From NCBI GenBank assembly GCA_944386525.1, contig CALXBL010000001.1, positions 16,724-80,723 of the forward strand: a stretch of 64,000 nt of DNA, read 5' to 3'. This DNA is from an uncultured Ruminococcus sp. Lineage in GTDB: Bacteria; Bacillota; Clostridia; Oscillospirales; Ruminococcaceae. Each line of letters opens with the position of its first letter. The first letter of the stretch is position 1. Made by a program: the position numbers and the translations under genes. Below the pieces are notes generated by a model, which had not been told where the DNA came from, ran no database searches, and saw only the letters and a program-made list of their open reading frames with translations. Of this stretch, positions 34,301-59,885 are shown in pieces.

Positions 34301-34692
34301 CTGACAAGAGCGTCCTTGCGCACAGGAGCCTCCGTTTCATGAAGAGATGACGCCGTATTGGAAATTTCGTCAACACTCCAGACACCATTATAGCAGAGCA
34401 GCGTCAGCAGTGACATACCATATGAAATATCACTAAGCGGACTTGCGAGAGCTGTTTTTATCCTTTCTGTCTCTGTTTCACCGAACTGAGTAAGCAGTTT
34501 CTGTCTCAGCGTTGTGGTGACATACGGGTTTTCTCCGTCTATCAGCTCATCTGAGGAAAATCCCCATGTATCTTCGCTGTATGTAAATGTATCATCTGCC
34601 GCATATGAATCAAGACTCATATAAGCGGAAAGATCCATGCTCCCTGCCAACAAGCACACAACTGTAATTATTGCAAATATATTTCTCCTCAT
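31333..34692 (-). CDS. Large secreted dockerin-bearing protein of unknown function with two paralogous halves of about 400 aa separated by a Thr-rich linker
   Basis: A signal peptide (MRRNIFAIITVVCLLAGSMDLSAYM) and a C-terminal type I dockerin (GDVNLDGIISMKDLLTVNKYI...NAVDAQLILRFLV). The internal duplication is described in the findings. I chose the start at ATG 34692 (AAAGGTG RBS) rather than GTG 34704. Confidence 0.75.
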   Translation of the reverse strand: MRRNIFAIITVVCLLAGSMDLSAYMSLDSYAADDTFTYSEDTWGFSSDELIDGENPYVTTTLRQKLLTQFGETETERIKTALASPLSDISYGMSLLTLLCYNGVWSVDEISNTASSLHETEAPVRKDALVSWINYYNMLQYTDDIAALDNAAIAENDASAVLDKTVSAVQTGTALLRVFKNAESQPVTLLIYGVESGEWNWSGSDYTSRILAADPGNTEFSDSSGIYFDSSSGKWIIPELDMSSENGAVLGVVINDVELLNKYGYDPSKLPRLILEPVVAYPGQTDIPITMMQAGIPESYGISMNADLCPAAEEIFSLSYDTESYDMGNALPVVGCTSHVNEQQLICTAVISATASSGIICSDYSPIISFLMDAADYKTVEDVAEKYGLTLQNSSELGDYYAFPMYFNTDGMSSYYADIFESDEFPLLMNSQIYVVMEPQETTTTTTTTTTTKASTTSIKASTTNTKATTTTKASTTTTKATTTAKASTTTAKATTTTKASTATTKATTTTTTVTTTATKATTTSSAAKTTTSSTSSTTRKSTSSISSGITSITTAESTKTTATTKKTTSSTTTAASTELSTMTTTASTARQEFEWGTDNWSMAYDYLGLQYIENGYGLMEEHAENLNASLSAMERVRIQNVEESEWLGAEYGMAVTEILAKSGVFDVSMWDPSADTIYNLNLDDERNLSIISYYQLLQETDAVQQEIAWTSAYMTQKSVLSNLIDQAAAAGKGGNMAIAAFFGENYAHAAIAYDVEYGLWKLGDKTYDGRILVADPYLEAFSHEACLYFSSSTLEWSVPMWNMSSSGGYRIGLASNSLSTMNTGGYFMGTDSLVSEHPYVPIIEVPADSSEFTLTPIGTDDIEDKASTELNWFSTIASMVTHKRAGLDYLAEGYIIKPLSAETVVYQMSYEDCLISVRADNAEQIFMMANGETTIMGNNSSYEFSITAETELPWESISVSGTGCGAFSAENIEQGLLLQGDSLEGAVIIAGSTSRTLESLPDGSMYTAVLISADTDGNMVIYADTDGDGQCETLLSGYQSGSSDVEYGDVNLDGIISMKDLLTVNKYIADFIILNEEALMNSDCDENMRINAVDAQLILRFLVLDLPVLPLSDALEMM
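32950..33380. repeat. Degenerate tandem repeats (about 21 bp) encoding a Thr-rich K-A-[ST]-T-T-T-T linker
   Basis: The protein segment reads TTTTTTTTTTKASTTSIKASTTNTKATTTTKASTTTTKATTTAKASTTTAKATTTTKASTATTKATTTTTT... The region coincides with the stop-free antisense ORF at 32960-33376. Confidence 0.8.
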
Positions 34693-34739
34693 TATACAAC
34701 ACACCTTTACATATCATATATTGTAAAAAATACAAATTT

Positions 34740-38948: not shown

Positions 38949-39764
38949 ATGCGTATCGACGAAATCGGATATAATCACAAGCACGACGAAACATTCCATA
39001 TAGACAGACCCGAAGGCACAGGCGACTGGCTCATGCTCATTATCAAATCACCAGTCCGTTTTAAAATCGAAGACAAGGATATACACGCTCCGGCGTGCTC
39101 TTTTATCATATATGAACCCGGATATCCACAGTTTTACTACGCAGATTCAAGTGTTTACTACGACGATTGGCTCCACTTCGTTCCCGACGAAAACGAAATC
39201 CAGCTTATGAAGTCGCTGAATATTCCTCTTAATAATCCGGTGTCGGTTTCTGAGGTTACTGATATTTCATCTATCGTCAGAAATATGTGTTTCGAACACT
39301 ACTCCACCAATAAAAACCGCCGACAATCGGTGGATATGTACTTCCGCCTGCTGCTTTACAAAATGAACGAAAAGACCCTCACCATTTTCAGCTCCATAAA
39401 ATCAACCGAAAGACCATACTTCCAAAAGCTCCTCTGGATTCGTGAATCCATCTATCGCTGGCCGGGCAGAGATTACTCCATTGACGATATGGCAAGAGAG
39501 CTTTCCCTCAGCCGCTCAAGATTCCAGCATATATATACCGACACGTTCGGCATAAGCGTAAACAAGGACATAATAAACAGCCGCATCGAAAAGGCAGCAG
39601 AACTGCTCAGAAACTCAGATATGCCCATCACTGAGATAGCCAATATCGTAGGCTACAGCAGTATACAGTACTTCACACGGCAATTCAAAAATGAGCTTGG
39701 CATCACTCCTGTCCAGTACAGGATAAATGAAAAATCCACTGGCTCTGAGATAGAATCAGAATAA
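38949..39764 (+). CDS. AraC-family transcriptional regulator (cupin sensor plus C-terminal double HTH)
   Basis: The C-terminal part (LSLSRSRFQHIYTDTFGISVNKDIINSRIEKAAELLRNSDMPITEIANIVGYSSIQYFTRQFKNELGITPVQYR) is a canonical AraC HTH. The ATG at 38949 follows AAGAGGTG. Confidence 0.85.
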   Translation: MRIDEIGYNHKHDETFHIDRPEGTGDWLMLIIKSPVRFKIEDKDIHAPACSFIIYEPGYPQFYYADSSVYYDDWLHFVPDENEIQLMKSLNIPLNNPVSVSEVTDISSIVRNMCFEHYSTNKNRRQSVDMYFRLLLYKMNEKTLTIFSSIKSTERPYFQKLLWIRESIYRWPGRDYSIDDMARELSLSRSRFQHIYTDTFGISVNKDIINSRIEKAAELLRNSDMPITEIANIVGYSSIQYFTRQFKNELGITPVQYRINEKSTGSEIESE

Positions 39765-39770
39765 AAACAA

Positions 39771-39812
39771 AATCAGCTGTACCTGGTGAGGAATCAGGTA
39801 CAGCTGATTTTC
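39771..39812 (+). terminator. Intrinsic terminator after the AraC gene
   Basis: Perfect 15-bp stem, AATCAGCTGTACCTG / CAGGTACAGCTGATT, followed by TTC. Confidence 0.7.
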
Positions 39813-40144
39813 ATAAGTGAGGACTACAGCATTTTTGCGAATTAAAACCAGACGCCACATAATATCTGCAGACGCCCGAATACAAATATGCTTACACATA
39901 TCTTGCATAACAAGACTATTTCTATTATAATATATTTCCAGACCGCAGGTCAATACACATTCCTGCTAATGTTTTGCATTTTTGTGCTATTTTCGTTTTT
40001 TTTACACCTTGCTAAATTTATATAATATTTCAGCAGAGTTTTATATGTTTGATTCTCCGCAGAATTCAAACACATTTTATATGCATCTGAATAAATACAC
40101 TTCATAAATTTCTCCGTAAGCCTTAAAGTAATTTTATGCTAAGA

Positions 40145-41983
40145 TCATATGACAAGCTTCACATCATAACGTTTCAGCCACTCGTTTAGCTGCACAAAAT
40201 ATGCGATAGTCTGCGGCTTTGCCATAAGCTGACCATACCACTGCACCTGTTCGCTGCCGCTTAGGAGCTCCTCCAATCTTGACTTTTTCACCAGCTTCAG
40301 AAGCGGTGCGTCCGGCTGGGATATTATGCTCCGCAGCATTCTCGACACTGCAAGGAAATACGCCGGATTATGCGTCTTTGGATAGGGGCTTTTCTTTCGC
40401 CAGAGTATATTCTCCGGCAGATAGTCCTTCATAGCCTCACGAAGAAGGCCCTTTTCGTATCCTCGGTAGTCCTTGTATTCCCACGGAACATTATAAAGAT
40501 ACTGAGCTATCCTGTGGTCGCAGAACGGAACACGCACCTCCAGAGAGCTGTACATACTCATTCTGTCTTTCCTGTCAAGGAGATTCTGCATGAACCAGTC
40601 CATATTGAGCAGCATCATCTCTCTCGTCCTGCTGTCGGCTGCATTTTCCCCAGGAAGCTTTTCAGCCTGTGATATCGTATACCTGTAGGCTGCATCAACA
40701 TAAGCCTTTCCGTCAATAATCTCACTTAGCTCATCAGTCAGGAACGACTGCCTATATGAGGTGCTCTGCGCCCATGGAAATCCCTCGCTCATGCGTATAG
40801 TTTCATCTCTGTACCAGGGATATCCGCCGAATATTTCATCCGCACATTCGCCGGAGAGTGCAACTGTAACTGATCTTTTTATATCACGGCAGAAAAGCAG
40901 CAGTGAGCTGTCCACATCAGCCATTCCCGGAAGAGCCCTTGCCTCCATAGCCGGGATAAGTGCGCCTGCAAGCTCAGGTATGTCAAGAACTGTAACATGG
41001 CTTTTGCTTCTGAGATATTCAGCCATACTTCCTATAAACTCTGTATCGCTGGTAGGCTGAAACTTGCTTTTATGAAAATACCTGTCATTGCTCTTATAGT
41101 CAAGTGAAAAAGTTGAAAGCTGCCTGCCCTCCTCTGCAAAGGTGCGTGACGCCACTGAGGAGATTATACTTGAATCAAGTCCTCCAGACAGAAATGTTCC
41201 CACGGGTACATCAGATACAAGCTGCCTTGTAACAGCATCCTCCACCAGAAATCTGACGTGCTCTGCTGTCTGAGTTATATTTTCAGTGTGGGGGAACGCC
41301 CTTAGTTTCCAATAGTTTTTTTTACTTAGACCTGTTCTGTCGTAACACGCCTGTTCTGCACGTTTCAGCTCACAGACCGTCCTGAAAACTCCACAGCCTG
41401 GAGTTCTTCCGGGCATCATCAGTATAAGCTCGGAAAGACCCTTCCTATCGATCTCATGAGGAACAGCCGGGTGCTGCATAAGGGAATTTATATCCGAGGC
41501 AAAAACAAATCCCTCCTGAGTCTCCGCATAAAAAAGAGGCTTGACACCCATTCTGTCACGGGCAAGCCACAGCCTTTCTTTTTTATGTTCCCATATGGCA
41601 AAAGCATATATACCGTTGAAGCCCTCCAGACATCTTTCGCCCAGAAGAATATAGCTCCAGAGAAGCACCTCGGTATCGCAGCTTGTTTTGAAAACCGCAC
41701 CAAGGCTCATAAGCTCACGTCTCAGCTCCTTTGTATTATACAGCTCTCCGTTGTATACTATAGTATACGTTTCATCTCCATAATTTATAGTCATAGGCTG
41801 TCTGCCATTTTGAGGATCTATGACAGACAGCCGTCTGTGCGCCATGATGCAGTGCTCTTCCGTATCGAACACACCCTCCTGGTCGGGACCTCTCCGGAGA
41901 AGTGCATTCTGCATCCCCAGAAGGATCTTCCGCTCACGTCTAATATCCTGTTCAAACCCTACAATACCGCAAATTCCGCACAT
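40145..41983 (-). CDS. asnB: Asparagine synthase (glutamine-hydrolysing)
   Basis: N-terminal nucleophile MCGICGIV (Ntn amidotransferase) and the PP-loop SGGLDSS. About 612 aa from the ATG at 41983 (GGAGGA RBS). The track start at 42055 is an upstream in-frame extension. Confidence 0.88.
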   Translation of the reverse strand: MCGICGIVGFEQDIRRERKILLGMQNALLRRGPDQEGVFDTEEHCIMAHRRLSVIDPQNGRQPMTINYGDETYTIVYNGELYNTKELRRELMSLGAVFKTSCDTEVLLWSYILLGERCLEGFNGIYAFAIWEHKKERLWLARDRMGVKPLFYAETQEGFVFASDINSLMQHPAVPHEIDRKGLSELILMMPGRTPGCGVFRTVCELKRAEQACYDRTGLSKKNYWKLRAFPHTENITQTAEHVRFLVEDAVTRQLVSDVPVGTFLSGGLDSSIISSVASRTFAEEGRQLSTFSLDYKSNDRYFHKSKFQPTSDTEFIGSMAEYLRSKSHVTVLDIPELAGALIPAMEARALPGMADVDSSLLLFCRDIKRSVTVALSGECADEIFGGYPWYRDETIRMSEGFPWAQSTSYRQSFLTDELSEIIDGKAYVDAAYRYTISQAEKLPGENAADSRTREMMLLNMDWFMQNLLDRKDRMSMYSSLEVRVPFCDHRIAQYLYNVPWEYKDYRGYEKGLLREAMKDYLPENILWRKKSPYPKTHNPAYFLAVSRMLRSIISQPDAPLLKLVKKSRLEELLSGSEQVQWYGQLMAKPQTIAYFVQLNEWLKRYDVKLVI

Positions 41984-42062
41984 ATAAAAATCCTCCTGCC
42001 ATACGATATTTATACAATACAGTATAGTATATGCAGATTTTCTCAGAATGTGCACATTTTTC

Positions 42063-42653
42063 TCAGGAAAGCATTGCTATTATCTCCTCAGCAGTTGCCT
42101 CACGGGTACGTCTTGTATCCATGGAGTGCTTTTCGATATAGCGGTGAGCCTCCTGCTCGGTCATTGAGTTCTTTTCAATAAGAAGGCACTTTGCACGTGA
42201 GACAGCCCTCATCTCACTGAGCTTTCTCTGAAGACAGTAATTCTCCTCTTTGATATGCTGTATCCTGCTCCTTACAGCAAGTCCGGAGCTTATTGCCTGA
42301 TGGAATGCCATCTTGTGAATGGGCTTTGAAACTACGGTTACGCCATATCTTATAGTACGGTTGGTCATATCATCAGCAGCGTCCGCACGGCACAGCAGTA
42401 TAATACCTGCACTGGTGGCATCGCTGAGCTGTCCGGCAAGCATATCTCCCGGCTCATCTGGAAGCGGCATATTTACAAGTATAAGATCAAAAACGTCCCT
42501 GCCGGTACATCGTCTTGCCTCTCCTCCGCTGCCTGCTGTGCAAATATCGCTGAATCCGCACTGACGCAGAAACGAAATAGCAGCAGTTGATATATCAGTT
42601 CCGGCTGTCACAAGTAACGCTCGTTTGCCCTGCACGCCAATCACTCCTTTCAT
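42063..42653 (-). CDS. ANTAR-domain RNA-binding antiterminator with a degenerate (pseudo-)receiver domain
   Basis: The C-terminal ANTAR domain reads LQRKLSEMRAVSRAKCLLIEKNSMTEQEAHRYIEKHSMDTRRTREATAEEI. The N-terminal CheY-like fold has LLVTAGTD and LILVNMPLP in place of the acidic pocket and the phospho-acceptor Asp. Confidence 0.8.
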   Translation of the reverse strand: MKGVIGVQGKRALLVTAGTDISTAAISFLRQCGFSDICTAGSGGEARRCTGRDVFDLILVNMPLPDEPGDMLAGQLSDATSAGIILLCRADAADDMTNRTIRYGVTVVSKPIHKMAFHQAISSGLAVRSRIQHIKEENYCLQRKLSEMRAVSRAKCLLIEKNSMTEQEAHRYIEKHSMDTRRTREATAEEIIAMLS

Positions 42654-42663
42654 GCAAGACCAT

Positions 42664-43836
42664 TTACGCTTTGTGATGACTCATTTTTCTGATAAAATTC
42701 CTTGTGCATACAGCCGGCACACAGCGAGCTGTAAATTCACTTTCGCTGGTAAGTCTAAAAGCCTCTTCCAAAGTCACGGGCAAAGCCGGCGTGTGATTCA
42801 AGCCTGATATCTCGCCATTTTCAATCCCCTCCAGACCTGCTTCAAGAAGAAGCTGTATCGTAAGATACGGATTGCAGCACGCATCGGCAGAACAAACCTC
42901 CAACTCCGGCTCACAGCCCGGCAGCTCAAATTGTTTGAGTGGTGCAAGATTTCCGTTTCTCCTCATAACATCGAGACGGCAGAATGAATTCTCCGTTGGA
43001 TTCATGAATGATGTAAATTCCGGCATACGCTTTGCAACTCCTGCGGCAAAGCACTTGCCCAGTTCATTGTCCTTTGTAAACAGCGGAACTCCATCCTTTT
43101 TAATGCTGATGTATATCTTCAGGGCACTGCCTATCTCATCAGGCAGAGGCTTTGGTATGAACGAGGCATACAGCCCATGCGCTGCCGCTATGGTTTCTAC
43201 AACAGTCTTGTAGTGCATCATATTATCAGCAGCAGTGAGCGGATCGCTGCTTGCAAAATCAATCTCATTCTGTCCAGGACCAGACTTATGGCATGAGGAT
43301 ATCGGACGAAGACCCATCTCCTCAAGAGCCAGACATATTTCACGTCGTGCATCCTCACACTTATCAAGAGGCGCTATATCAAGATATCCTCCGTTATCAT
43401 AGGGTATCTTTGTAGGATTGCCCTCCAGATCCATTTTAAACAGATAAAACTCACAGCGTGTGCTGACTTCGCACTGATATCCCATTGATTTAAGCTTTTC
43501 CACAGTATTCCTGAGATTGCGTCTCAGGTCTCCCTCGTACGGCGTACCGTCTGTACAATAGAGATTACACAAAAAGCGTACAACCCTTCCTGACTGAGGT
43601 CTCCACGGAAGAACCGACAGCGAACCTGTATCAGGTTTCAGCATAAGTATATCCGGTATCTCCTCCAGCATATCAGACGTATAAAACGGTATGCCATATT
43701 CTACAGCTCTGGAAAGCTCTCCCGGCATAATGGCTATGTTTTTCATATTTCCTGTGGTGTCGCAAAATGACATTCTGATAAATTTTATATCATTATCCTC
43801 AATAAATCCCTGAGTGTCGTCTGCTGAAAAATACAT
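42664..43836 (-). CDS. Glutamine-synthetase-fold protein with substituted catalytic residues (probable pseudoenzyme)
   Basis: It has a GS N-terminal beta-grasp and a catalytic-domain scaffold (GQNEIDF, NSFCRL, CNPYL). Canonical ligand positions are replaced, as detailed in the finding. 390 aa, against about 440-450 aa for GSI. Confidence 0.7.
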   Translation of the reverse strand: MYFSADDTQGFIEDNDIKFIRMSFCDTTGNMKNIAIMPGELSRAVEYGIPFYTSDMLEEIPDILMLKPDTGSLSVLPWRPQSGRVVRFLCNLYCTDGTPYEGDLRRNLRNTVEKLKSMGYQCEVSTRCEFYLFKMDLEGNPTKIPYDNGGYLDIAPLDKCEDARREICLALEEMGLRPISSCHKSGPGQNEIDFASSDPLTAADNMMHYKTVVETIAAAHGLYASFIPKPLPDEIGSALKIYISIKKDGVPLFTKDNELGKCFAAGVAKRMPEFTSFMNPTENSFCRLDVMRRNGNLAPLKQFELPGCEPELEVCSADACCNPYLTIQLLLEAGLEGIENGEISGLNHTPALPVTLEEAFRLTSESEFTARCVPAVCTRNFIRKMSHHKA

Positions 43837-43877
43837 TTCAATTCTCCTTCTTATATTTATATAAGTTTTGTCGGCTC

Positions 43878-43910
43878 AAAAAAGCTGCTGCATCCATCAG
43901 GAGCAGCAGC
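43878..43910 (-). terminator. Intrinsic terminator between the L,D-transpeptidase gene and the GS-like operon
   Basis: On the minus strand, GCTGCTGC - 11-nt loop - GCAGCAGC, followed by TTTTTT. It begins 10 nt after the upstream gene's stop codon (43921-43923) and the U-tract ends 41 nt before the GS-like start codon (43836). Confidence 0.8.
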
Positions 43911-43920
43911 CTAAGCACTA

Positions 43921-45801
43921 TTACGGAATGATAAGCACCGGAATACCTACCTCGATCGCATTGAACAGATCCGCAGCGAAATCCGGCGGCAGATTAATAC
44001 AGCCATGAGAACCATTATACATATAGATATCTCCGCCGTATGCTGAACGGTTAAGGTCGTGGAGACCTACGCCGCACCAGGAAACATTCATCCAGTAAGA
44101 TACAGGCGCTGAGTAACCCTCACCCTCAAGATTTCTGTCTCGCTCTTTTGTCCACACCTGAAATACACCTGTTGGAGTAGCTCGATCCGGATTGGTTTGA
44201 GTACCTGTTACACAATCAGAATCCATAACCATTTGGCCGTCTTTATACAGCCATACGTGCTGATTGGTGATATCTACCTCAATATATGTATCGCCGATAT
44301 CATCTATTCCACGGCAGTAGCCTTCCTGACTATATACCGGCTCGACTGTACAGCTTTCACCGGTCTTTATAAGCTCAATGAGAGCTGCTGTAGTCTCAGA
44401 TACATCAGTTTTCCACCCGTAAATTCCCTGTGCACCTAAAGGCAGCTCGATCGTTCCCTGAAGTGTGGAATTGAATGTACGTGTATAGCCTGCAACATAT
44501 GTATCGTACTTATCCGCAAGATTAGCCTGTACCCAAGCCTTTGCTGCATTTTCATCAACAGTTACATTTCCGTCAGCGTCTGAAGATACCCATTCTACAA
44601 TAGTAGAGGCTTCAAGCACTTCCTGACGATCCTCAAAATCATATGTGATAGTAAGTCCCATAAGAGCATTTGCCTCTTCACACGCAGACTGCAGACTCAC
44701 CGCAGTAACTTCAGCAGTAAGATAACAATCACAAGCATTGAGTTCAATAGTTGTGTTGCCGCCTCGAACCTGCTCCAGAGCATATTCAACAAGAACATCA
44801 ACATCTATCATATCGCCATCGTCCTCAGGTATGACAACGTATGTGCCATCGCTCTGCTTCTGGAGATATGCATCGGTTGGAGGTGCAGTGCCCCATGTAT
44901 ACGAGCCAATAAGCTGAGCCAGCTCATCCTCATCGTAGGTATTTATAAGTCTTGTCTCATACTCCGACTTGCTAAAAAGACTGACAAACCAAAGCATAGC
45001 ACTCCTTGAGGCAGCTTCTTCAAAAGCCTCATCGTTTTCAAGCGAAACAGCAGAACCGAACTCTTCGCCATTGAAATGAACTTCATCACCATTTTTCTTT
45101 ATGAAAGTAAGTCCTTGAACATTGCCCTCATGAATAACGGCTTCCTTTGCCTCGTCCATAGTCATGCCGCTTATATCAACGCCGTTCATATATGTATTGG
45201 GAAGAAAACCATTGCTGCAAACAAGCATACCTATAACATACGCAATAATAAGCAGCATAATAACTGCAAATACTATTATTATACCAGCTCTGCCCTTTCT
45301 GTCGGCAGCTGCCTGCTGCTGCTGATAATTGATGTTCTGTCGGTAGTCCCTTGGTATTTCGTAATCATATGCGTCGTCCTGACGTCTGCGCCGCTGAGGA
45401 GATGACTGACGCTGCACATAGCGCTGAGCCTCTGCTGCTGTAGAAGAAGGAGCTGATGTTCTTCTGGAGGAACGGGGTTCGCTGTCCATATAACTTATAG
45501 ACTCCTTGATACGGCGCATCTTTTCCACCTTATCGTCCGAAGCCGGAGCTGATGCAGCTTTTCCTGCCGGCTTTGATGTACGCTTTTTAACTGCTGTTGA
45601 AGCAGCCGGTCGGCCTGAAAGCTGAGATACGCTTTTGTTGCTTGAAGCTTTGCGCTGCTGCGGCTGAGACGACTTTTTCTGTCCGCCTGAAAGAGAGCGC
45701 TCCATCTGGCGGTGGAGTTCCTCCATACTCATTTTCTGCGGCGCAGCAGCGGAACTACGCTGACCTGTCTTGGGATTTCTGCTTTCGTTCAAAAAAATCA
45801 T
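43921..45801 (-). CDS. L,D-transpeptidase (YkuD family) with a long disordered cytoplasmic N-terminal tail, one TM segment and PG-binding-type repeats
   Basis: The C-terminal catalytic motif is GVGLHDLN...YNGSHGCINLP. The TM segment is IIIVFAVIMLLIIAYVIGMLV. The N-terminal 160 aa or so are rich in S, Q, R, P and A. Confidence 0.85.
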   Translation of the reverse strand: MIFLNESRNPKTGQRSSAAAPQKMSMEELHRQMERSLSGGQKKSSQPQQRKASSNKSVSQLSGRPAASTAVKKRTSKPAGKAASAPASDDKVEKMRRIKESISYMDSEPRSSRRTSAPSSTAAEAQRYVQRQSSPQRRRRQDDAYDYEIPRDYRQNINYQQQQAAADRKGRAGIIIVFAVIMLLIIAYVIGMLVCSNGFLPNTYMNGVDISGMTMDEAKEAVIHEGNVQGLTFIKKNGDEVHFNGEEFGSAVSLENDEAFEEAASRSAMLWFVSLFSKSEYETRLINTYDEDELAQLIGSYTWGTAPPTDAYLQKQSDGTYVVIPEDDGDMIDVDVLVEYALEQVRGGNTTIELNACDCYLTAEVTAVSLQSACEEANALMGLTITYDFEDRQEVLEASTIVEWVSSDADGNVTVDENAAKAWVQANLADKYDTYVAGYTRTFNSTLQGTIELPLGAQGIYGWKTDVSETTAALIELIKTGESCTVEPVYSQEGYCRGIDDIGDTYIEVDITNQHVWLYKDGQMVMDSDCVTGTQTNPDRATPTGVFQVWTKERDRNLEGEGYSAPVSYWMNVSWCGVGLHDLNRSAYGGDIYMYNGSHGCINLPPDFAADLFNAIEVGIPVLIIP

Positions 45802-46064
45802 CCTTTCTCACATCTATTCTATTATCCGTTCAGTTTTATACCGATCGGCACATCTTCTCAGGATTTACCTATTCATTATATAATACACGTTTCATTTTGT
45901 CAACCATTTTCGACAACTAAACTGTATTGATTTCATTATGTAACCGTATTGTTTCCATTTCGTTTACCTATCCCACGCAAACAAAGTGCAAGTGTATCAA
46001 ATTAAAAACTGTTTTTTTGTGTACAGTGCATAAATGTGGGACAAATCTTTGGTGAATGTTGCAA

Positions 46065-46094
46065 TTGACAAATTGTACATAAAAGTATTATAAT
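46065..46094 (+). promoter_or_regulatory. Sigma-A promoter for the pectate lyase gene
   Basis: TTGACA (46065-46070), an 18-nt spacer, then TATAAT (46089-46094), leaving a 5' UTR of about 85 nt. Confidence 0.55.
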
Positions 46095-46184
46095 TACAGA
46101 TGGGTAGATTTGGCATTGAGGAGTGCTTTCATATATCTGCCTTAAAAATATAATCAATTGGTTTTATTGTAGGAGGTATTACCA

Positions 46185-49100
46185 ATGGAAATCAAGAATT
46201 TCAAAAAAACGCTTGCTGCTATATTGTCAGTAAGCACACTGGCATCAAGCCTTGCCGCAACAGTAGTTAGTGCTTATGATGCCTCATCTGTTGATTCTGT
46301 CAACATGACCATGCCTTTGACAACTGCAGGTACAGTTTCAATCGTTGCTTCGTCCGGTTACGAAGAAGGCGCATATGTAATCTGGGCTCCGGTAAGCGAT
46401 GCCGACGGCTATAATGTTTACTGCGACGGCGTTCAACTCGATTCCAGTCTCATCCGTCAGTATTCCGACGGTTCTTTCCGTGCTGACGCTGTAGGCATAA
46501 AGGCTGGCAGCCACACTCTGAAGATAGTCCCCACAAGCGGCGGCTCTGAAATAAGCTCAGCTGCTAATGAAGCAACCGTAACCTCTGTTGCACATGACAG
46601 ATCCGGTTTCGCTTTTGAAAATGGTAAGTCTGCTGTAGGTGCATACAACGAAGACGGTACTCTCAAATCCGGCGCAGTTGTTGTTTATGTAACTGATGAA
46701 AACAAGAATTCTGTATCAGCTAATATCGGAGGAACAACAGCTACAGGTCTACAGGGTATTCTCGACGCTGCTCAGGATAGCTCAGTTCCTGTTGTTGTAA
46801 GAATAATTGGCAACATAACCGACCCATCTACTTTGGATAAAGGTGATATTCTCGTTGATGATGTTACCTGTGGTCTTACCATCGAAGGTATCGGCAGCGA
46901 CGCTACTCTCAACGGCTTTGGTCTGCGTATCAAGAACAGTTCTTACGTTGAGGTAAGAAACCTGGGATTCATGAACTGCGACAGTACTGAAGGCGACTGC
47001 TGCGGTCTCCAGCAGGCAAATACATACTGCTGGGTACATAACTGCGACTTCTTCTATGGCGAACCCGGCTCCGATGCTGACCAGGTAAAGGGCGATGGTT
47101 CTCTTGATACAAAGAAATCCCAGTATATCACCCATTCCTATAACCACTTCTGGGATAGCGGAAAATGCAACCTCCAGGGTGCAAATTCCAGCGATACTTC
47201 AAATTACATCACATATCACCATAACTGGTACGATCACTCCGACTCACGTCACCCAAGAGTAAGAGTGGCTACAGTTCATGTTTATAATAACTACTACGAT
47301 GGCAATGCTAAGTACGGCATTGGCTCTACAACTGATTCTGACGTTTTCGTTGAAAATAACTACTTTAGAAACTGCTCCAAGCCTATGATTATCTCTACAC
47401 AGGGTTCGGATACTGATGAAACACTGTCAGGTGAAACCGGCGGTATGATAAAGGCTTATGGCAACTACATCGACGGCGCTGATTCATACATCACCTACGA
47501 AGGTAACAGCTCAAGCTTCGACTGCTATGAGGCATCTTCAAAGACCGAGCAGGTGCCTGAAAGCGTAAAGGCAGCAAGCGGCGGCGCTACATATAATAAC
47601 TTTGATACTGCAAGCACCATGTACAGCTACGATCTCGACGCTGCAGCAGATGTTCCCGGCATTCTGGCAACATACGCTGGTCGTGTTGACGGCGGCGACT
47701 TCAAGTGGGAATTCGACGATGCTACTGAAGATGATAACTCCGATGTTATTGCAGAGTTGAAGTCAGCACTGCTTTCATACGACGATTCAATCGTTGCTAT
47801 CGGCAGCGGCTTTGAGAACATCAGCGGAGATATCACTACACCCTCTACAACTACTTCCACAACAGGTCAGCAGGGTCAGACCACAACTACTAACGGCGGA
47901 AGCGTTTCCACCGGCGGCTACGCTCACAACTTCACAGAAAACGGAACTACAAGCTCCTTCTATAGCATAACAGGTAATCTGTCCACCTCCAAAGGCACTG
48001 TTACATACAACGGTATGACTCTCACTCAGTGCCTGAAGATTGAAACCTCTACATCTATCAGCTTTAATGCTGGTTCTGCCGGCAAACTAACCATGGTATT
48101 CCTGGAGCCTGAGGCAACTATTAAGGTTGACGGCACTAAGTATGTAGCAAGTGGCGACAGAATCATCTCTGTTGATCTTTCTGCCGGTGCTCACACTATA
48201 ACAAAGGCTAACACAGCTAATATGTACTATATGGTATTCTCTGGCGAAGGCGGCTCTGTTGTTACAACTACTGCATCAAGTACTACTCAGGGCAGCAACA
48301 CAACTACTGCTTCTACAACCAAGACTTCCGGCTCCTCCACAACAAATCAGGTATCCGGCGATCTTGAGGTTGTAAGCTCCGGCGGCTGGAACGAAATGAT
48401 GTATCTGGTAGTATCCGGTATATCCGACTCCGACGTAACTGCTGTTTCCTACAGCGGCCCTGTAACAGGTTCACTCTCCGGCGAAGACTTCCAGTATCTG
48501 GTAAGAGACGTTTCTAACGGCACACGTGTTGATATCACTGGTCTGACTGCCGGTGTATACTCTATCACTATGCAAACTACAAAGGGAGATGTAACAGTTT
48601 CTAACATCGGCGTAAGCGAACAGGATCGTTCCGGTTATGCTCACTTCAACTACACTTCTGGCGTAGGCGCATATAATGATGACGGTACTCTAAAGGATAA
48701 CGCTATTGTACTCTATGTGACAAATGAAAATAAGGACACTGTAACAGTTACATCCAAGGACGGCACATCAGTTTCCGGTATAGGCCATATCCTCAATTCC
48801 GCTGGTAAGGACGCAGGCTCCGGCACAACCTCTAAGGGCGGTATTGCAAACAACAATAACAACATCATACAGAAGCTTGCTGAAGACGGCACTCCACTGG
48901 TAGTAAGAATCATCGGCAACGTTGAAGCACCTGCCGGCCTTACAGCTTATGACTCTGTAGACTACGGCGGTTCTGTTGGTGACAACGGCTTTATGGCAAG
49001 AATGCAGTCCGGTAAGGACGTTACAATTGAAGGTATCGGTACTGACGCTACTATCAATGGCTGGGGTATCCACTTCATCGCACAGTCCTCTGCTCCTGAG

Positions 49101-50273
49101 CTTGGCAAGAGCTTTGAAGTAAGAAATATCGCATTCAGAAACGTTCCTGAAGACTGCCTCGGTATGGAAGGCGTCCAGGAGGATACAACCCTGACAGCTG
49201 CTGTTGAAAGATGCTGGATCCATAACTGTGAGTTCTATGCTCCTACTATTGCAAATCCTGCTGAATCCGACAAGGACGGCGGCGATGGCGCTTGCGACTT
49301 CAAGCGCGGTCAGTACTTCACAAACAGCTACTGCTACTATGAAGGCTATCACAAAACTAACCTGGTAGGTTCTTCCGACTCCAGTCTCCAGTATCACCTC
49401 ACATATCACCACAACTACTGGAAGGACTGCGAATCCCGTGGACCTCTGGCTCGTCAGGCAGACATCCATATGTACAACAACGTATTTGAAGGTCAGACCA
49501 GCTACTGCATGAACCCAAGAGCTAATGCTTATATCTTCTCTGAATACAACTACTTCCTCAATTCCAAGGATCCTATGGAGATCAAGCTGGGCGCTATCAA
49601 GAGCTACAACGACGTATTTGAAAACTGCAAGGGTAATATGCAGGGTACTATCGTAAGCAGCAAGGATGAAGTTGTTTCCTGCGATTGTCTGTATGCAAGC
49701 TTTGAGCTTGATCCCTCTATCAGCTACGTTGCTTCCAACGACTACCTGCTCCATACTGACGTTTATGAACTGAAGAGCATCTTTGAGACTGACGGTGGCT
49801 GCATGGATGAAACGAGCCTCTCCGGTGATGTTGAACCGGGCACAACTACTTCGCCCATAGATACAACAACTACTACAACTACAACAACTACTACCACTGC
49901 TACTACTTCTTCTACTTCTTCCAATACAACTTCAAGCACTACAAATACAACCGGATCTGTTTCCAATACAACTTCAAGCACTACTAACACAACTTTAACC
50001 GTTTCCAGTACAACTACAAGCAAAACAACAGTATCAACAAGTACCATCCAAGTCATTCCAGCTTCTAAATACGGCGACGTCAACCTTGATGAAGTTACAT
50101 CAATGGTAGACCTCGTATACATCAACAAGTATCTTGCTAAGGTTATTACTCTCAACAACCAGCAACTCGCAAATTCTGAGTGCGTAACAGACGGCACTAT
50201 AAATGGCAGCGATGCTCAGGCTCTCCTGAAGTTCCTCGTTCTTGCTATTGATTCACTGCCTATCAATGCATAA
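46185..50273 (+). CDS. Cellulosomal double pectate lyase: Fn3-like + PL1 module, CBM-like beta-sandwich, second Fn3-like + PL1 module, Thr-rich linker, C-terminal dockerin
   Basis: A signal peptide. PL1 signatures occur twice: WVHNCDFFYG...YHHNWYDHSDSRHPRVRVATVHVYNNYY, and WIHNCEFYAP...YHHNYWKDCESRGPLARQADIHMYNNVF. The dockerin reads GDVNLDEVTSMVDLVYINKYL...INGSDAQALLKFLV. Confidence 0.85.
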   Translation: MEIKNFKKTLAAILSVSTLASSLAATVVSAYDASSVDSVNMTMPLTTAGTVSIVASSGYEEGAYVIWAPVSDADGYNVYCDGVQLDSSLIRQYSDGSFRADAVGIKAGSHTLKIVPTSGGSEISSAANEATVTSVAHDRSGFAFENGKSAVGAYNEDGTLKSGAVVVYVTDENKNSVSANIGGTTATGLQGILDAAQDSSVPVVVRIIGNITDPSTLDKGDILVDDVTCGLTIEGIGSDATLNGFGLRIKNSSYVEVRNLGFMNCDSTEGDCCGLQQANTYCWVHNCDFFYGEPGSDADQVKGDGSLDTKKSQYITHSYNHFWDSGKCNLQGANSSDTSNYITYHHNWYDHSDSRHPRVRVATVHVYNNYYDGNAKYGIGSTTDSDVFVENNYFRNCSKPMIISTQGSDTDETLSGETGGMIKAYGNYIDGADSYITYEGNSSSFDCYEASSKTEQVPESVKAASGGATYNNFDTASTMYSYDLDAAADVPGILATYAGRVDGGDFKWEFDDATEDDNSDVIAELKSALLSYDDSIVAIGSGFENISGDITTPSTTTSTTGQQGQTTTTNGGSVSTGGYAHNFTENGTTSSFYSITGNLSTSKGTVTYNGMTLTQCLKIETSTSISFNAGSAGKLTMVFLEPEATIKVDGTKYVASGDRIISVDLSAGAHTITKANTANMYYMVFSGEGGSVVTTTASSTTQGSNTTTASTTKTSGSSTTNQVSGDLEVVSSGGWNEMMYLVVSGISDSDVTAVSYSGPVTGSLSGEDFQYLVRDVSNGTRVDITGLTAGVYSITMQTTKGDVTVSNIGVSEQDRSGYAHFNYTSGVGAYNDDGTLKDNAIVLYVTNENKDTVTVTSKDGTSVSGIGHILNSAGKDAGSGTTSKGGIANNNNNIIQKLAEDGTPLVVRIIGNVEAPAGLTAYDSVDYGGSVGDNGFMARMQSGKDVTIEGIGTDATINGWGIHFIAQSSAPELGKSFEVRNIAFRNVPEDCLGMEGVQEDTTLTAAVERCWIHNCEFYAPTIANPAESDKDGGDGACDFKRGQYFTNSYCYYEGYHKTNLVGSSDSSLQYHLTYHHNYWKDCESRGPLARQADIHMYNNVFEGQTSYCMNPRANAYIFSEYNYFLNSKDPMEIKLGAIKSYNDVFENCKGNMQGTIVSSKDEVVSCDCLYASFELDPSISYVASNDYLLHTDVYELKSIFETDGGCMDETSLSGDVEPGTTTSPIDTTTTTTTTTTTTATTSSTSSNTTSSTTNTTGSVSNTTSSTTNTTLTVSSTTTSKTTVSTSTIQVIPASKYGDVNLDEVTSMVDLVYINKYLAKVITLNNQQLANSECVTDGTINGSDAQALLKFLVLAIDSLPINA

Positions 50274-54097: not shown

Positions 54098-54138
54098 ATC
54101 AACCATTCCTTTCAATAAACCGAATGTGAACACGCAAT

Positions 54139-54445
54139 AAAAAAAGCCTCTTCTATGCCAGATATAGCATAAAAGAGACGAAGATTTGCTTTCTCCGTGG
54201 TACCACTCTTCTTGACGAGAACCGTCCACTCAGTCACATCCTATAATGCGCTTCTCTGTAACGGGAGAAACCCGTTGCCGCCTACTTTAAAATTTCAGCT
54301 GCAAGGCTCAGGGAGGAGTTATCCTGCTTCTACCGTACTGTCTCACACCAAACAACAGCTCTCTGACACGGCTGGAAACATCTTTTTTCCCGTCTTTGCC
54401 TTTTACAATAATTCCGGAGCAGCTATTCCTACACCACTCCCTTTC
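54139..54445 (-). promoter_or_regulatory. T-box riboswitch leader (Leu specifier candidate) with terminator
   Basis: On the minus strand: stem I elements AGAGAG...TGGTGTGAGA...AGTACGG. A specifier-loop candidate ...AACUCCUCCCUGA follows (CUC or CUG, both Leu codons). The conserved T-box sequence is GAGTGGTACCACGGAGA (plus strand 54195-54206). The terminator is CTCTTTTATGC - loop - GCATAGAAGAG, followed by GCTTTTTTT. Confidence 0.8.
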
Positions 54446-56454: not shown

Positions 56455-56466
56455 GAGGTGAACATT

Positions 56467-56961
56467 ATGGAAAACTTTGTAATTTCAATTCTGGTTACCA
56501 ACCGCTCCGGTGTGCTGACTCGTGTTTCCAGTATGTTCACACGCCGCGGCTTCAATATCGACACCCTAACTGTTGGCGAAACTGAATCACCTGAATTCTC
56601 ACGCATTACCGTAACTCACCGAGGCGATAAGGCTGTCTGCGAGCAGATAGTAAAGCAGCTTGAAAAGATGTATGACGTTCAGAAGGTGCAGGTAATGCAG
56701 CGTGATACTACAGTTGCACGTGAGCTGCTCCTCATAAAGGTAAAGCACTTCTCAGAGCAGCGTCAGGACATTATGTCTATTGCGGATGTTTTCCGTGCAA
56801 AGATCATTGATTTTTCACAGCAGGCTCTGGTTATCGAGCTTCAGGGTGCAACATCCAAGATTAACGCTTTTATTGAGCTTCTCAAACCCTACGGCATTCT
56901 CGAAATGTGCCGCACCGGTCTTGTGGCTCTTGAAAGAGGCGGCAATTGTCTTAAAGACTAA
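56467..56961 (+). CDS. ilvN: Acetolactate synthase small (regulatory, ACT-domain) subunit
   Basis: ISILVTNRSGVLTRVSSMFTRRGFNIDTLTVGETE is the typical IlvN/IlvH ACT domain. The ATG at 56467 follows AAGAGGTG. Confidence 0.9.
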   Translation: MENFVISILVTNRSGVLTRVSSMFTRRGFNIDTLTVGETESPEFSRITVTHRGDKAVCEQIVKQLEKMYDVQKVQVMQRDTTVARELLLIKVKHFSEQRQDIMSIADVFRAKIIDFSQQALVIELQGATSKINAFIELLKPYGILEMCRTGLVALERGGNCLKD

Positions 56962-56971
56962 CCGCCCGTAA

Positions 56972-58048
<1,077 letters not shown>

Positions 58049-58109
58049 TCTCTTTGCAGAATAAAATTTCATAAAATATCCGTTTGCATTGTGTGATCGG
58101 ACTGTACTT

Positions 58110-58149: not shown

Positions 58150-58205
58150 ACTTACTCAACTCCTTTGAAAATAGATTTGAAAGTATAATAAATTGAGGTG
58201 AAAAT

Positions 58206-59867: not shown

Positions 59868-59885
59868 GAAAGAGAGTGAATATTA

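Follow-up and report, generated by a model that had tools for sequence, protein, structure and literature searches.

The window analysed here, a 64,000-nucleotide stretch of DNA from an uncultured Ruminococcus sp. of the gut or rumen, carries three neighboring genes on the minus strand that encode a protein with the fold of glutamine synthetase (GS), a protein that joins a receiver to an ANTAR domain, and asparagine synthetase B. The first gene (42664–43836, −) specifies a GS-like protein of 390 aa with the GSI-alpha fold, assigned from Pfam, NCBIfam, PDB alignments, an AF2 model, and dN/dS. The second (42063–42635, −) encodes a NitR/AmiR-like antiterminator, assigned from Pfam, PDB matches, and start-site analysis. 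Its longest ORF spans 42063–42653 (−) and opens at ATG 42653; the most likely start is GTG 42635, which lies 7 nt past the ribosome binding site AAAGGAG and yields a 190-aa protein, the same length as P0121. With this start, the gap to the GS-like stop codon is 28 nt and not the 10 nt originally given, while the 79-nt gap to the third gene stands. The latter, asnB (40145–41983, −), encodes a glutamine-hydrolyzing asparagine synthetase of 612 aa that starts with MCGICG (N-terminal Cys nucleophile) and scores 484.9 bits on TIGR01536 (cutoff 267). Upstream of the GS-like operon lies a YkuD L,D-transpeptidase gene (43921–45801, −; Pfam YkuD, 5.9e-21; synteny with L006/L007), followed by its intrinsic terminator (43878–43910, −).

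The GS-like protein matches both Pfam GS domains (Gln-synt_N, 1.2e-9; Gln-synt_C, 1.1e-54) and reaches 207 bits on TIGR00653, below the cutoff of 429. Its AF2 model (pLDDT 82, pTM 0.86) superimposes on the Methanosarcina mazei and Bacillus subtilis GS with a TM score of 0.88, and its top fold matches include PDB 4s0r and 7tfa, which are GS–GlnR/TnrA complexes. Residue equivalences were tabulated from a HMMER alignment to B. subtilis GS (4lnf) and from MAFFT, with E. coli numbering, and they bear out the original prediction of a degenerate catalytic site. Substitutions affect D50 (Y52), E129 (R127), H210 (C182), E212 (K184), N264 (I235), H269 (K240), H271 (Y242), R355 (E311), and R359 (C315), and, by alignment, R339 (L297 or N296) and R344 (Q302 or K301); the E327 flap is deleted. 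Three of the six metal ligands are gone, as are Asp50, the Glu flap, and the ATP/phosphate residues. Kept are E131 (E129), Y179, E220 (E191), G265, R321 (R287), and E357 (E313). The NRSAxIRIP segment, reported earlier as absent, is in fact present though degenerate (GNLAPLKQF), and GQNEIDF is presumably not a loss, E. coli GS reading GQNEV.

The same pattern recurs across the 88 members of the family: E129 is replaced by Lys or Arg in 87/88, E212 by Lys and H210 by Cys in all 88, and the H269 position is never His (Lys in 33/88). R339, R344, and R359 decay as well in the 390-aa subclade. The gene is under purifying selection, with a dN/dS of 0.09–0.15 similar to that of the ANTAR and asnB genes. 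These alignments support the assignment of the GS paralogue as a pseudoenzyme that keeps the GS fold and has lost the metal, ATP, and ammonium machinery. Vertebrate lengsin likewise keeps a GSI-type fold with its catalytic residues lost; it is a eukaryotic lens structural protein and, unlike the protein described here, has no linked regulator. Literature searches turned up no bacterial GS pseudoenzyme coupled to a regulator.

The second protein is recognized by Pfam through its ANTAR domain (7.9e-16) and, closer to the threshold, its Response_reg domain (33.8 bits vs a cutoff of 30.2). It matches PDB 1s8n, 6wsh, and 1qo0, the last of which (AmiR) aligns with the ANTAR half. As predicted, the receiver has Asn in place of the phospho-acceptor and is missing the acidic pair: relative to CheY, D57 becomes N61 and D12/D13 become T16/A17, while K109 is kept. 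The comparison supports a receiver that would be unable to take a phosphoryl group on Asp. Consistent with the original prediction, the ORFs examined within ~12 kb of the locus contain no histidine-kinase domain, and the window shows no linked kinase, nor do the loci for which gene tables were examined. Among the ANTAR receivers compared, the D57 position is Asn in 69/85 and Asp in just 6, and none has acidic residues at the acidic-pair positions. The ANTAR partners of intact-GS relatives also have a non-phosphorylatable receiver, with Asn or His for the phospho-acceptor Asp. Judged from these alignments, the trait is one of the whole NitR-like family and not peculiar to the degenerate-GS lineage.

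The degenerate GS-like gene is directly followed by the ANTAR gene in 87/87 Ruminococcus loci, which come from 80 species-level genomes and from metagenome contigs, while the flanking contexts vary and no other neighbor is conserved. Among five representatives at 50% identity, the GS gene is directly followed by the ANTAR gene in four (three with a degenerate and one with an intact GS); in the fifth, with a degenerate GS, the contig ends inside the downstream ORF. Thus, the GS-like and ANTAR genes behave as what appears to be an obligate two-gene module, as expected from a sensor-plus-effector partnership of the AmiC–AmiR type. The suggested co-occurrence of the trio holds for this pair, whereas asnB is linked in only 9/87 loci, a small subclade.

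The pair resembles glnA–nitR of Clostridium saccharobutylicum and C. thermocellum, in which a GSI-alpha-type gene lies immediately upstream of a ~190-aa receiver and ANTAR gene of the same subfamily, with Asn or His at the phospho-acceptor position and a nitrogen-assimilation theme. NitR, an ANTAR antiterminator, switches on GS/GOGAT genes when nitrogen is limiting, through a mechanism described as “not fully understood” (PMC6316151), and the type I GS of C. thermocellum (Clo1313_2031) adjoins an ANTAR gene (Clo1313_2030) and GOGAT (PMC4676874, PMC9888227). The original statement that clostridial glnA–nitR pairs involve an intact GS is true of the three non-Ruminococcus relatives examined (L088, L089, and L095), where an intact GS adjoins the same ANTAR family and GOGAT, GSIII, amtB, and asnB genes lie beside it. 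An intact GS next to the ANTAR gene is presumably the ancestral state. In Ruminococcus sp. L049, the GS-like gene encodes a degenerate protein (TKCEFY, CHK, GSALS) and lies downstream of GOGAT and opposite amtB, so that the order GOGAT–GS–ANTAR is still present in L049 and L088. In contrast to glnA–nitR, the GS in Ruminococcus is dead, the pair in most genomes lies outside the GOGAT cluster, and no NitR-type leader precedes the operon itself.

In the AmiR and NasT systems, the target is a hairpin with an A..G.. hexaloop, located in the leader either ahead of a terminator or overlapping it (PMC3369936, PMC3795266), and ANTAR RNA matches have been listed upstream of GS and ANTAR operons and of asparagine synthase genes (PMC3369931 Table S2). 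Eight target leaders were found in relatives, by eye or with a custom scan: L088:172, L089:2314, L089:5713, L095:3886, L095:3688(-), L095:1532(-), L049:515(-), and L049:739. Each is promoter-proximal and has a single C[AANGRY]G hexaloop hairpin that overlaps the 5′ arm of an intrinsic terminator, where the published ANTAR model has two hexaloops. They precede amtB, GOGAT, GSIII, and GS–ANTAR operons, and those of L049 occur in a Ruminococcus with a dead GS. No such leader was found in the 64-kb window or in the vicinity of the 86 other Ruminococcus loci; the hexaloop motif that had been anticipated around 43878–43990 did not appear in the window scan.

Because adjacency alone is no proof of interaction, the GS-like protein may not be the sensor of the ANTAR protein at all, and could instead be a neofunctionalized enzyme, a GSIII/PII decoy or modulator, or a scaffold. 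The ANTAR protein would then sense directly or via an unlinked partner, with the adjacency inherited from an ancestral glnA–nitR operon. The ancestral GS was itself a target, as the NitR-type leaders ahead of the GS–ANTAR operons of L089 and L095 indicate, and GSI-alpha enzymes bind other partners (GlnK1, sP26, TnrA). However, the pairing has outlived the loss of catalysis by a long time and has come through repeated moves to unrelated neighborhoods. A plain promoter usually precedes the operon, which has ceased to be an antitermination target itself; therefore, a regulator kept next to its target fails to explain the pairing. A dead enzyme as the sole co-transcribed cargo of a regulator is otherwise hard to rationalize, and we regard this alternative as improbable. 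The proposed role of the GS-like protein as the sensing partner of the ANTAR protein is well supported by comparison.

The structures of archaeal GS point to 2-oxoglutarate as the candidate ligand. Its pocket is formed by F18, R20, A34, R88, R174, R175, and S191 in the M. thermolithotrophicus GS (PMC10799026) and by F24, R26, S38, R87, R172, R173, and S189 in the M. mazei GS (PMC11957540). The equivalents in the GS-like protein are F19, R21, N33, A35, R79, R164, R165, and S181, and all eight positions are invariant in 88/88 members while the catalytic site decays, which makes the pocket the one functional patch of the protein that is invariant throughout. The motif FRN[A/S]RRRS is found in 92/122 divergent representatives, only 27 of which have the E129/E212/H269 triad. 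The B. subtilis GS is described as incompatible with 2-oxoglutarate, which clashes when modeled. Four of the eight positions, equivalent to R20, R174, R175, and S191, are conserved in that enzyme too, so that only F19, A35, and R79 discriminate, where it has Tyr, Glu, and Thr. The archaeal GSI-alpha enzymes (M. mazei GlnA1 and the M. thermolithotrophicus GS) show the greatest structural similarity (TM 0.88) and have all their pocket residues matched, including the three that B. subtilis lacks; they differ in that 2-oxoglutarate switches their own activity or assembly, whereas the GS-like protein is predicted to be inactive. The dead GS is likely a dedicated nitrogen sensor by way of this pocket. 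Against this assignment, the pocket is inter-subunit and would need a GS-type oligomer, and the 390-aa subclade has lost ~40 C-terminal residues that aid ring stacking in real GS.

The same partner switch could instead respond to glutamine or glutamate bound in what is left of the active site. Six residues of the glutamate site (E131, E220, G265, R321, Y179, and E357) are invariant in 88/88 members, and the lost metal ligands have mainly become basic residues, such that Arg or Lys would replace the cations. Feedback-inhibited B. subtilis GS binding GlnR/TnrA serves as a model, with the GS–GlnR/TnrA complexes (PDB 4s0r and 7tfa; PMC9249791) as precedent. However, the glutamine-feedback arginine (R62 in B. 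subtilis, R66 in M. mazei) ranks outside the six most frequent residues at its position in the family, the segment that harbors it (GFVR in B. subtilis, after the Asp50 region) is 3–4 residues shorter, and the Glu327 flap is deleted. The cavity is also unevenly conserved, with R339, R344, and R359 decaying in the 390-aa subclade, while the 2-oxoglutarate pocket is uniformly so. Glutamine or glutamate is accordingly an unlikely ligand, if a less remote one than a GS-like protein with no sensing role.

On balance, we lean toward reading the locus as the Ruminococcus form of the clostridial glnA–nitR module, in which a GSI-alpha paralogue that has lost catalysis would be kept as a regulatory subunit and gate the ANTAR protein via 2-oxoglutarate. 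With no GS activity to switch, another protein would have to read the conformational change. It is proposed that a GS-like oligomer docks on the pseudo-receiver or the coiled coil of the ANTAR dimer and keeps the dimer inactive. Under nitrogen limitation, 2-oxoglutarate would fill the allosteric pocket and remodel the oligomer. The freed ANTAR protein could then bind the hexaloop hairpin and block terminator formation, turning on ammonium-assimilation genes elsewhere in the genome. The direction of control, with 2-oxoglutarate releasing a sequestered ANTAR protein, is suggested by analogy and by work on C. thermocellum: deletion of its type I GS reportedly “deregulates nitrogen metabolism”, in the title wording of Rydzak in 2017, and nitrogen-assimilation genes are reported to be up-regulated in the deletion mutant.

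Two groups of systems offer the analogy. As in AmiC–AmiR of Pseudomonas aeruginosa and NasS–NasT of Paracoccus denitrificans, an ANTAR protein with an unphosphorylated receiver-like domain would answer to a ligand-binding partner encoded alongside it instead of to a kinase. However, that partner would be a GS-fold protein, probably an oligomer, and not of the periplasmic-binding-protein fold, and the candidate ligands, 2-oxoglutarate or glutamine, are central metabolites in place of an amide or nitrate. As in the GS–GlnR and GS–TnrA pairs of Bacillus, a GSI-alpha oligomer may act as a nitrogen-status sensor that contacts a gene regulator. The Bacillus GS is a working enzyme whose active site binds glutamine as the signal, with R62 and the Glu flap, neither of which the GS-like protein has; its partner is a MerR-type DNA-binding repressor, whereas here it is an RNA-binding antiterminator.

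In the original prediction, control was exerted in cis, by autoregulatory antitermination at 43878–43910 and by regulation of asnB. The terminator (GCUGCUGC-N11-GCAGCAGC-U6; 8-bp GC stem, 11-nt loop) is as strong as had been claimed, with a ΔG of −25.3 kcal/mol and a z of −4.4, and its structure is kept with compensatory changes in L006, L008, L009, L010, and L011. The 41 nt from the hairpin to the GS-like ATG contain no promoter-like site, as also claimed, nor is there a promoter in this interval in L006–L011, which would favor cis control. In the window, transcription into the GS-like operon has no evident source other than the transpeptidase transcript, and read-through from that gene probably sustains a low level of expression. 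However, the hairpin lies 10 nt past the transpeptidase stop codon and reads as the terminator of that gene, and no ANTAR-type A..G.. hexaloop hairpin is found over it in the window or over its homologues in syntenic relatives. Most Ruminococcus orthologues, and L013 and L014, have an ordinary promoter and no attenuator, commonly a plain TTTACA-N17-TATAAT followed by a short unstructured leader. Regulated read-through is thus not borne out.

For asnB, cis control draws on a strong terminator hairpin in the leaders of L006, L008, L009, and L011 (in L006, ΔG −21 kcal/mol and z −5.7; the L008 contig ends inside the hairpin). The apex can form an AAA[AAAGGC]UUU-like hexaloop in L006, L007, L011, and L012, and two other Firmicutes have asparagine synthase among their listed ANTAR targets. 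This hexaloop is not conserved in L008 or L009, however, and in the window the 79-nt leader lacks a terminator and does not fold significantly (z −1.2). Together with the rarity of its linkage, these observations leave asnB unsupported as an output, and cis wiring of the locus is very unlikely. Instead, asnB is probably a subclade-specific neighbor with its own promoter. The promoter-like site (TGCACA-N17-TATACT; 42026–42054, −) has a −10 element and a preceding CTGCA that are conserved in six relatives, and the palindrome ATGTGCACAT (42048–42057) overlaps its −35 element.

The GS-like gene (42664-43836, minus strand) encodes a 390-aa paralogue of type I glutamine synthetase (GS) of the GSI-alpha kind and is followed by an ANTAR antiterminator gene and asnB, the three lying co-directionally on the minus strand as the original prediction described. 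Its product harbors both GS domains, a beta-grasp N-domain (PF03951 Gln-synt_N, 1.2e-9) and the catalytic C-domain fold (PF00120 Gln-synt_C, 1.1e-54), in Pfam as well as in the AF2 model. Against the type I GS equivalog TIGR00653 (NCBIfam), it scores 207 bits, below the cutoff of 429. Its residue table, given here in E. coli GS numbering, derives from an HMMER alignment to B. subtilis GS (4lnf) and from MAFFT alignments, which agree. Three of the six metal ligands are lost, and each is now basic (E129 is R127, E212 is K184, and H269 is K240); E131, E220, and E357 remain. The residues for ATP/phosphate and ammonium are replaced as well: H271 by Y242, R359 by C315, D50′ by Y52, and R339 and R344 by non-arginine residues that depend on the alignment (L297 or N296 and Q302 or K301, respectively), while the E327 flap is deleted. 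Further substitutions are H210 to C182, N264 to I235, and R355 to E311, and Y179, G265, and R321 are kept. The expectation of a GS-fold paralogue with substituted catalytic residues is thus borne out, and the protein is predicted to be catalytically dead. Two points of the original description call for revision. GQNEIDF should not be counted among the losses, since the corresponding sequence in E. coli GS is GQNEV, and the NRSxxIRIP segment, reported as absent, is there in the degenerate form GNLAPLKQF.

The AF2 monomer model (pLDDT 82, pTM 0.86) superposes on the GSI-alpha structures of M. mazei and B. subtilis with TM values of 0.86-0.90, and the GS fold is intact as modeled. Its low-confidence stretches (150-156, 181-183, and 231-236) lie at or beside the active site segments Tyr179, CHK, and GSALK.

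A protein search retrieves a graded Ruminococcus series of 390, 408-415, and 427-432 aa, all of which share RCEFYLF or KCEFYLF, CHK, and GSAL(K/S). Across 88 aligned Ruminococcus members, E129 is replaced by K or R in 87, E212 by K and H210 by C in all 88, no member has His at H269, and the Glu flap is missing throughout; E131, E220, E357, and R321 do not vary. Catalytic decay is progressive: the longer members still hold NRxxLIRxP and RxExR, both gone from the subclade of the window. Cys at R359 is confined to this 390-aa subclade. The subclade also carries a 9-residue deletion at the Glu-flap region (columns 306-314 of alignment A1) and a 10-residue deletion further on, and does not have the ~20 C-terminal residues of the 427-432-aa members; these changes may have altered the oligomeric state. 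All three genes are nevertheless under purifying selection, with dN/dS values in unsaturated pairs of 0.09-0.15 (GS-like gene), 0.06-0.11 (ANTAR gene), and 0.07-0.12 (asnB).

The second gene encodes a REC-ANTAR protein of the NitR/AmiR kind. Its longest ORF spans 42063-42653 (minus strand), but GTG 42635 is the most likely start since the opening codons of the long ORF contain a ribosome-binding site, AAAGGAG. This start yields a 190-aa protein, as in the database protein P0121, and widens the gap from the GS-like stop codon from the originally noted 10 nt to 28 nt. The ANTAR domain is full-length (PF03861, E 7.9e-16, positions 3-54 of 54), and the receiver scores 33.8 bits, slightly over the threshold of 30.2. 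In an alignment with CheY and 85 orthologues, the acidic pair is T16/A17, the phospho-acceptor D57 is N61, and K109 is retained. Alignments to Rv1626, the EutV-like structure 6wsh, and AmiR also place Asn at the phospho-acceptor, in accord with the Asp-to-Asn change first noted. Of the 85 family sequences, 69 have N at the D57 position, 6 have D, and 10 have another residue, and in none is the acidic pair acidic. By these residues, the receiver of the window should not be phosphorylatable on Asp. The ORFs examined within ~12 kb of the locus, which include cellulosomal dockerin proteins, a rubrerythrin, and an AraC regulator, contain no histidine-kinase domain, as anticipated, and no adjacent cognate kinase occurs in those loci of relatives whose gene tables were inspected. 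The ANTAR output domain is common to this protein and to the phospho-dependent EutV/PdtaR type; the acidic pair, the phospho-acceptor Asp, and the adjacent kinase of the latter are all lacking here.

A scan of species-representative genomes finds a GS-like relative in at least 504 genomes. Among the best 80, almost every label is Ruminococcus or its family, with R. bromii, R. callidus, and R. flavefaciens represented; a single contig is labeled Alistipes. The original prediction had called for a co-occurrence check of the trio, and for the GS-like/ANTAR pair the association is strict, with the REC-ANTAR gene directly after the GS-like gene in 87 of 87 loci. In contrast, asnB comes next in just 9 of the 87, which form the 390-410-aa subclade that includes the window. 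The genes flanking the pair vary by lineage.

Beyond this group, an exhaustive HMMER search of 1.84 billion representatives returns 356 relatives at E < 1e-30. Among the 122 full-length relatives drawn from the best 150 of the 356, 27 keep the E129/E212/H269 triad. Of five representatives looked up, three degenerate ones and one intact one have an ANTAR gene immediately downstream, and the fourth degenerate one (locus L092) sits after GOGAT on a contig that ends inside the next ORF; GOGAT, carAB, pyrG, GSIII, and amtB-PII are among the neighbors of the five. Two giant proteins carry tandem GS-like domains in a single polypeptide, with 9 separate GS-like stretches in P0332 (4424 aa) and 5 in P0432 (2757 aa). 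The GS-derived variant, a presumptive sensor, is widespread in Ruminococcus, with varied degenerate forms among metagenomic relatives.

The gene order is that of the glnA-nitR module of Clostridia, in which a GSI-alpha-type gene precedes a ~190-aa REC-ANTAR gene; it is found in the window and in the relatives' loci L088, L089, L091, and L093-L095. Outside Ruminococcus, ANTAR homologues also directly follow a GSI-alpha-type gene, for example in a Clostridia bacterium (P0189, L088) and an Oribacterium-like genome (P0199, L089), where both genes adjoin GOGAT, GSIII, aminotransferase, and asnB genes. The original prediction held that such pairs involve an intact GS, and this proves right for L088, L089, and L095, with the motifs TEAEFY, SHHE, GSGLH, RSALIRIP, and RIEIR in L088 and L089. 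The GS of these modules is catalytically intact, whereas that of the window is degenerate. The receivers of the L088 and L089 ANTAR proteins have N or H instead of Asp, which argues that kinase independence is older than catalytic loss.

To our knowledge, how the clostridial NitR-type ANTAR regulators, which have no kinase, sense nitrogen has been an open question since the 1990s. The ANTAR antiterminator NitR induces GS/GOGAT genes when nitrogen is limiting, through a mechanism that a 2018 review called “not fully understood” (PMC6316151). In several Firmicutes, GS+ANTAR operons and asparagine synthase genes have been described with ANTAR RNA motifs upstream (PMC3369931, Table S2). In C. thermocellum, the type I GS Clo1313_2031 adjoins the ANTAR gene Clo1313_2030 and GOGAT (PMC4676874, PMC9888227), and deletion of this GS “deregulates nitrogen metabolism” according to the title of Rydzak et al. 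2017. Our literature search found no description of a degenerate GS partner or of a GS sensing role in the glnA-nitR module, and a 2025 review of GS regulation mentions neither ANTAR nor pseudoenzymes. With AmiC-AmiR and NasS-NasT, the system shares a non-phosphorylated ANTAR protein and a co-encoded, co-inherited putative sensor. It probably belongs to the known glnA-nitR or ligand-gated ANTAR kind, with a dedicated GS-derived pseudoenzyme as the presumptive sensor.

The strongest clue to the function of the GS-like protein, as judged from its residues, is an allosteric pocket that is conserved while the active site decays. Its best structural matches are archaeal GSI-alpha enzymes that are switched on by 2-oxoglutarate in a pocket between neighboring subunits (PMC10799026, PMC11957540). 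This pocket consists of F18, R20, R88, R174, R175, and S191, with a small residue at A34, in M. thermolithotrophicus (PMC10799026) and of F24, R26, S38, R87, R172, R173, and S189 in M. mazei (PMC11957540). In Bacillus GS, Tyr and Glu occupy the first and third pocket positions and Arg88 is missing, which prevents 2-oxoglutarate binding. In an HMMER alignment to M. mazei GS, the corresponding residues of the window protein are F19, R21, N33, A35, R79, R164, R165, and S181. All listed residues of the 2-oxoglutarate-binding enzymes are thus matched in sequence; the pocket is inter-subunit and needs an oligomer, and the AF2 model is a monomer. The eight positions are invariant in 88 of 88 Ruminococcus members, four of them being conserved also in the Bacillus GS that is described as unable to accommodate 2-oxoglutarate. 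Among the 122 divergent representatives, 92 carry FRN[A/S]RRRS and most others nearly so, and in these same representatives the catalytic residues are scrambled. The main alternative, which we consider unlikely, is that the ligand is glutamine bound in the remnant active site. The glutamine-feedback arginine (R62 in B. subtilis, R66 in M. mazei) is not among the commonest residues of the family at its position.

A scheme can be proposed that joins the observed pseudoenzyme, pseudo-receiver, strict pairing, purifying selection, and conserved pocket with the leaders found in relatives. By analogy to AmiC and NasS, the GS-like oligomer would bind and silence the ANTAR dimer, a step that we regard as somewhat favored over its opposite. 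Deletion of the C. thermocellum GS reportedly raised the expression of nitrogen-assimilation genes despite an increase in glutamine, as though the response had lost a repressor. In the preferred reading, 2-oxoglutarate, the nitrogen-limitation signal, would release the ANTAR protein; this choice of ligand is put forward tentatively. The released protein would bind a hexaloop hairpin and prevent termination ahead of amtB, GOGAT, and glnN, as suggested by EutV, NasR, and AmiR and by the leader anatomy. The original idea that the GS-like protein is the sensing partner of the ANTAR protein emerges stronger and more specific.

The leaders of nitrogen genes beside the module in relatives, when folded, reveal a recurrent architecture. 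A consensus sigma-70-type (sigma-A) promoter is followed, ~5-15 nt from the predicted transcription start, by a 3-5-bp C-G-closed hairpin with the hexaloop AANGRY, and a long intrinsic terminator takes its 5′ arm from the loop and 3′ strand of this hairpin. ANTAR proteins require A at position 1 and G at position 4 of the hexaloop. Six such leaders precede GOGAT at L088:172 (GAC[AAAGGC]GTC), the aminotransferase-GS-ANTAR genes at L089:2314 (GGAC[AACGGC]GTCC), GSIII at L089:5713 (GGAC[AATGGC]GTTC), GS-ANTAR at L095:3886 (TGGAC[AAAGGC]GTTCA), GSIII at L095:3688(-) (ACAGC[AAGGGC]GCTGT), and amtB-PII at L095:1532(-) (ACAC[AAAGAC]GTGT). They served as positive controls for a structural regex scan, used instead of a covariance model because a 14-16 nt hairpin is too information-poor for useful E-values. 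The scan found one further leader, L049:515(-), and a broader scan flagged L049:739, bringing the total in relatives to eight, two of them in Ruminococcus sp. U.2_2 (L049). This pair comprises an amtB leader (TTGACA-N17-TATACT, CAGC[AAAGAC]GCTG, terminator) and the leader of a divergent GOGAT operon (TTGACA-N17-TATGAT, GAAC[AAGGAT]GTTC, terminator) that runs into a degenerate GS-like gene (TKCEFY, CHK, GSALS) and its ANTAR gene. Therefore, the dead-GS lineage still has a plausible ANTAR regulon. Since there is no space for an upstream second hairpin (P1 of the published model), the ANTAR target in these leaders seems to be a one-hairpin variant.

No one-hairpin leader of this type occurs on either strand of the 64-kb window, so the regulon of its ANTAR protein would lie elsewhere in the genome. 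The published two-hairpin model gives nothing convincing in the window or the loci. A strict scan of both (two A..G.. hexaloops at most 25 nt apart, then a T-run) returned coding-region or AT-rich chance matches; the sole two-hairpin candidate, 16032-16059, lies between convergent genes. Rfam searches of the window (gathering threshold) and of 39700-46300 (E up to 10) report only a T-box and nothing ANTAR-like. Occurrences of GACAACGGCGTT inside ANTAR genes (L006, L014, L038, and others) and at L079:542 were dismissed as coding coincidence (a D-N-G-V codon run or an upstream ORF end). The L089 GSIII was used as a route to Ruminococcus GSIII leaders, and the 120 matches listed all belong to Oribacterium or other Lachnospiraceae.

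More broadly, it is possible, though short of probable, that clostridial GS-derived pseudoenzymes that keep only the inter-subunit 2-oxoglutarate pocket are dedicated receptors gating kinase-independent ANTAR antiterminators, and that they make up an extensive clostridial family, not yet described and present throughout Ruminococcus. If so, carbon/nitrogen-status sensors such as PII, NtcA, and NrpR would be joined by a new class, and NitR-type regulators would gain their missing signal-input device; in other clostridia, the working GS would have this sensor role too and remain an enzyme. The Ruminococcus lineage offers a natural experiment in which catalysis of the GS partner is gone while the pairing and one allosteric pocket are kept without exception, which suggests the GS subunit as the sensor and 2-oxoglutarate as a specific, testable ligand. 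In the rumen and human colon, where nitrogen comes mainly from ammonia, Ruminococcus species are keystone degraders of fiber and starch, and the module would then be their central nitrogen switch. A bacterial case of an enzyme turned sensor pseudoenzyme and a one-hairpin ANTAR RNA target would be added as well. Hundreds of genomes and metabolic reconstructions list the GS-like genes as “glutamine synthetase”; going by their residues, the proteins are almost certainly unable to produce glutamine.

A YkuD L,D-transpeptidase gene precedes the GS-like gene. Its intrinsic terminator (43878-43910, minus strand; dG -25.3 kcal/mol, z -4.4) is strong, starting 10 nt past the stop codon and leaving 41 nt to the GS-like ATG. 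No credible promoter is present in these 41 nt, in line with the absence of a sigma-A promoter noted earlier; TTGAGC-N18-TATAAG was rejected, its -10 abutting the ribosome-binding site with a ~9 nt 5′ UTR. The same arrangement recurs in L006 and L008-L011 with differing stem sequences, which indicates structural conservation of the terminator. Regulated read-through of 43878-43910 had been suggested, with 43878-43990 as a place to search for an ANTAR motif, and the idea finds no support: Rfam, the structural scan, and inspection by eye detect no such motif there, no hexaloop hairpin overlies the terminator or its homologues, and L013, L014, and most other Ruminococcus orthologues have a plain TTTACA-N17-TATAAT promoter and a short unstructured leader. 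The simplest reading is constitutive low expression of the regulatory operon, in the window via read-through of the transpeptidase terminator.

The third ORF, whose real start is ATG 41983 (minus strand), is predicted to be a bona fide glutamine-hydrolyzing asnB (MCGICG Cys nucleophile, PF13537 and PF00733, TIGR01536 at 484.9 bits vs a cutoff of 267). The proposal that asnB is an output of the module gains no support, as its spacer has its own conserved -10 region (CTGCATATACT/AAT), the window spacer is unstructured (z -1.2, not significant), and linkage is restricted to the nine loci; asnB is a thematically related neighbor, not a demonstrated output. The -10-like CTGCATATA(C/A)T precedes asnB in all syntenic relatives (L006, L008, L009, L011, L013, and L014) and at 42026-42057 (minus strand) of the window, where the -35 is overlapped by a perfect palindrome, ATGTGCACAT, that could be an operator. 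On inspection, the spacer matches neither the CodY-box nor the TnrA-box consensus. An asnB-leader terminator hairpin occurs in four close relatives (L006:7800-7855, dG -21 kcal/mol, z -5.7; its equivalents in L009 and L011; and L008, whose contig ends inside it) and not in the window, L013, or L014. The hairpin apex can form an AAA[AAAGGC]UUU-like hexaloop in L006, L007, L011, and L012.

Elsewhere in the window, a T-box leader (54171-54405, minus strand; RF00230, 107.5 bits) lies upstream of a 2-isopropylmalate-synthase-like gene (52427-54229), divergent from an ilv/leu cluster (54706-62750). Large dockerin-bearing proteins are encoded at 31333-34704 (minus strand) and 46185-50273 (plus strand), one with two pectate-lyase domains and a CBM77 module, and indicate a cellulosome-producing Ruminococcus as the source. 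REP-like repeated hairpins, GGAACGCCGAGGNCGGCGTTCCCTACA, in one or several copies, fill the intergenic space upstream of the GS-like gene (~5850-5990 of the locus) in the R. flavefaciens-group genomes L038, L042, L052, L053, L066, L068, and L069.
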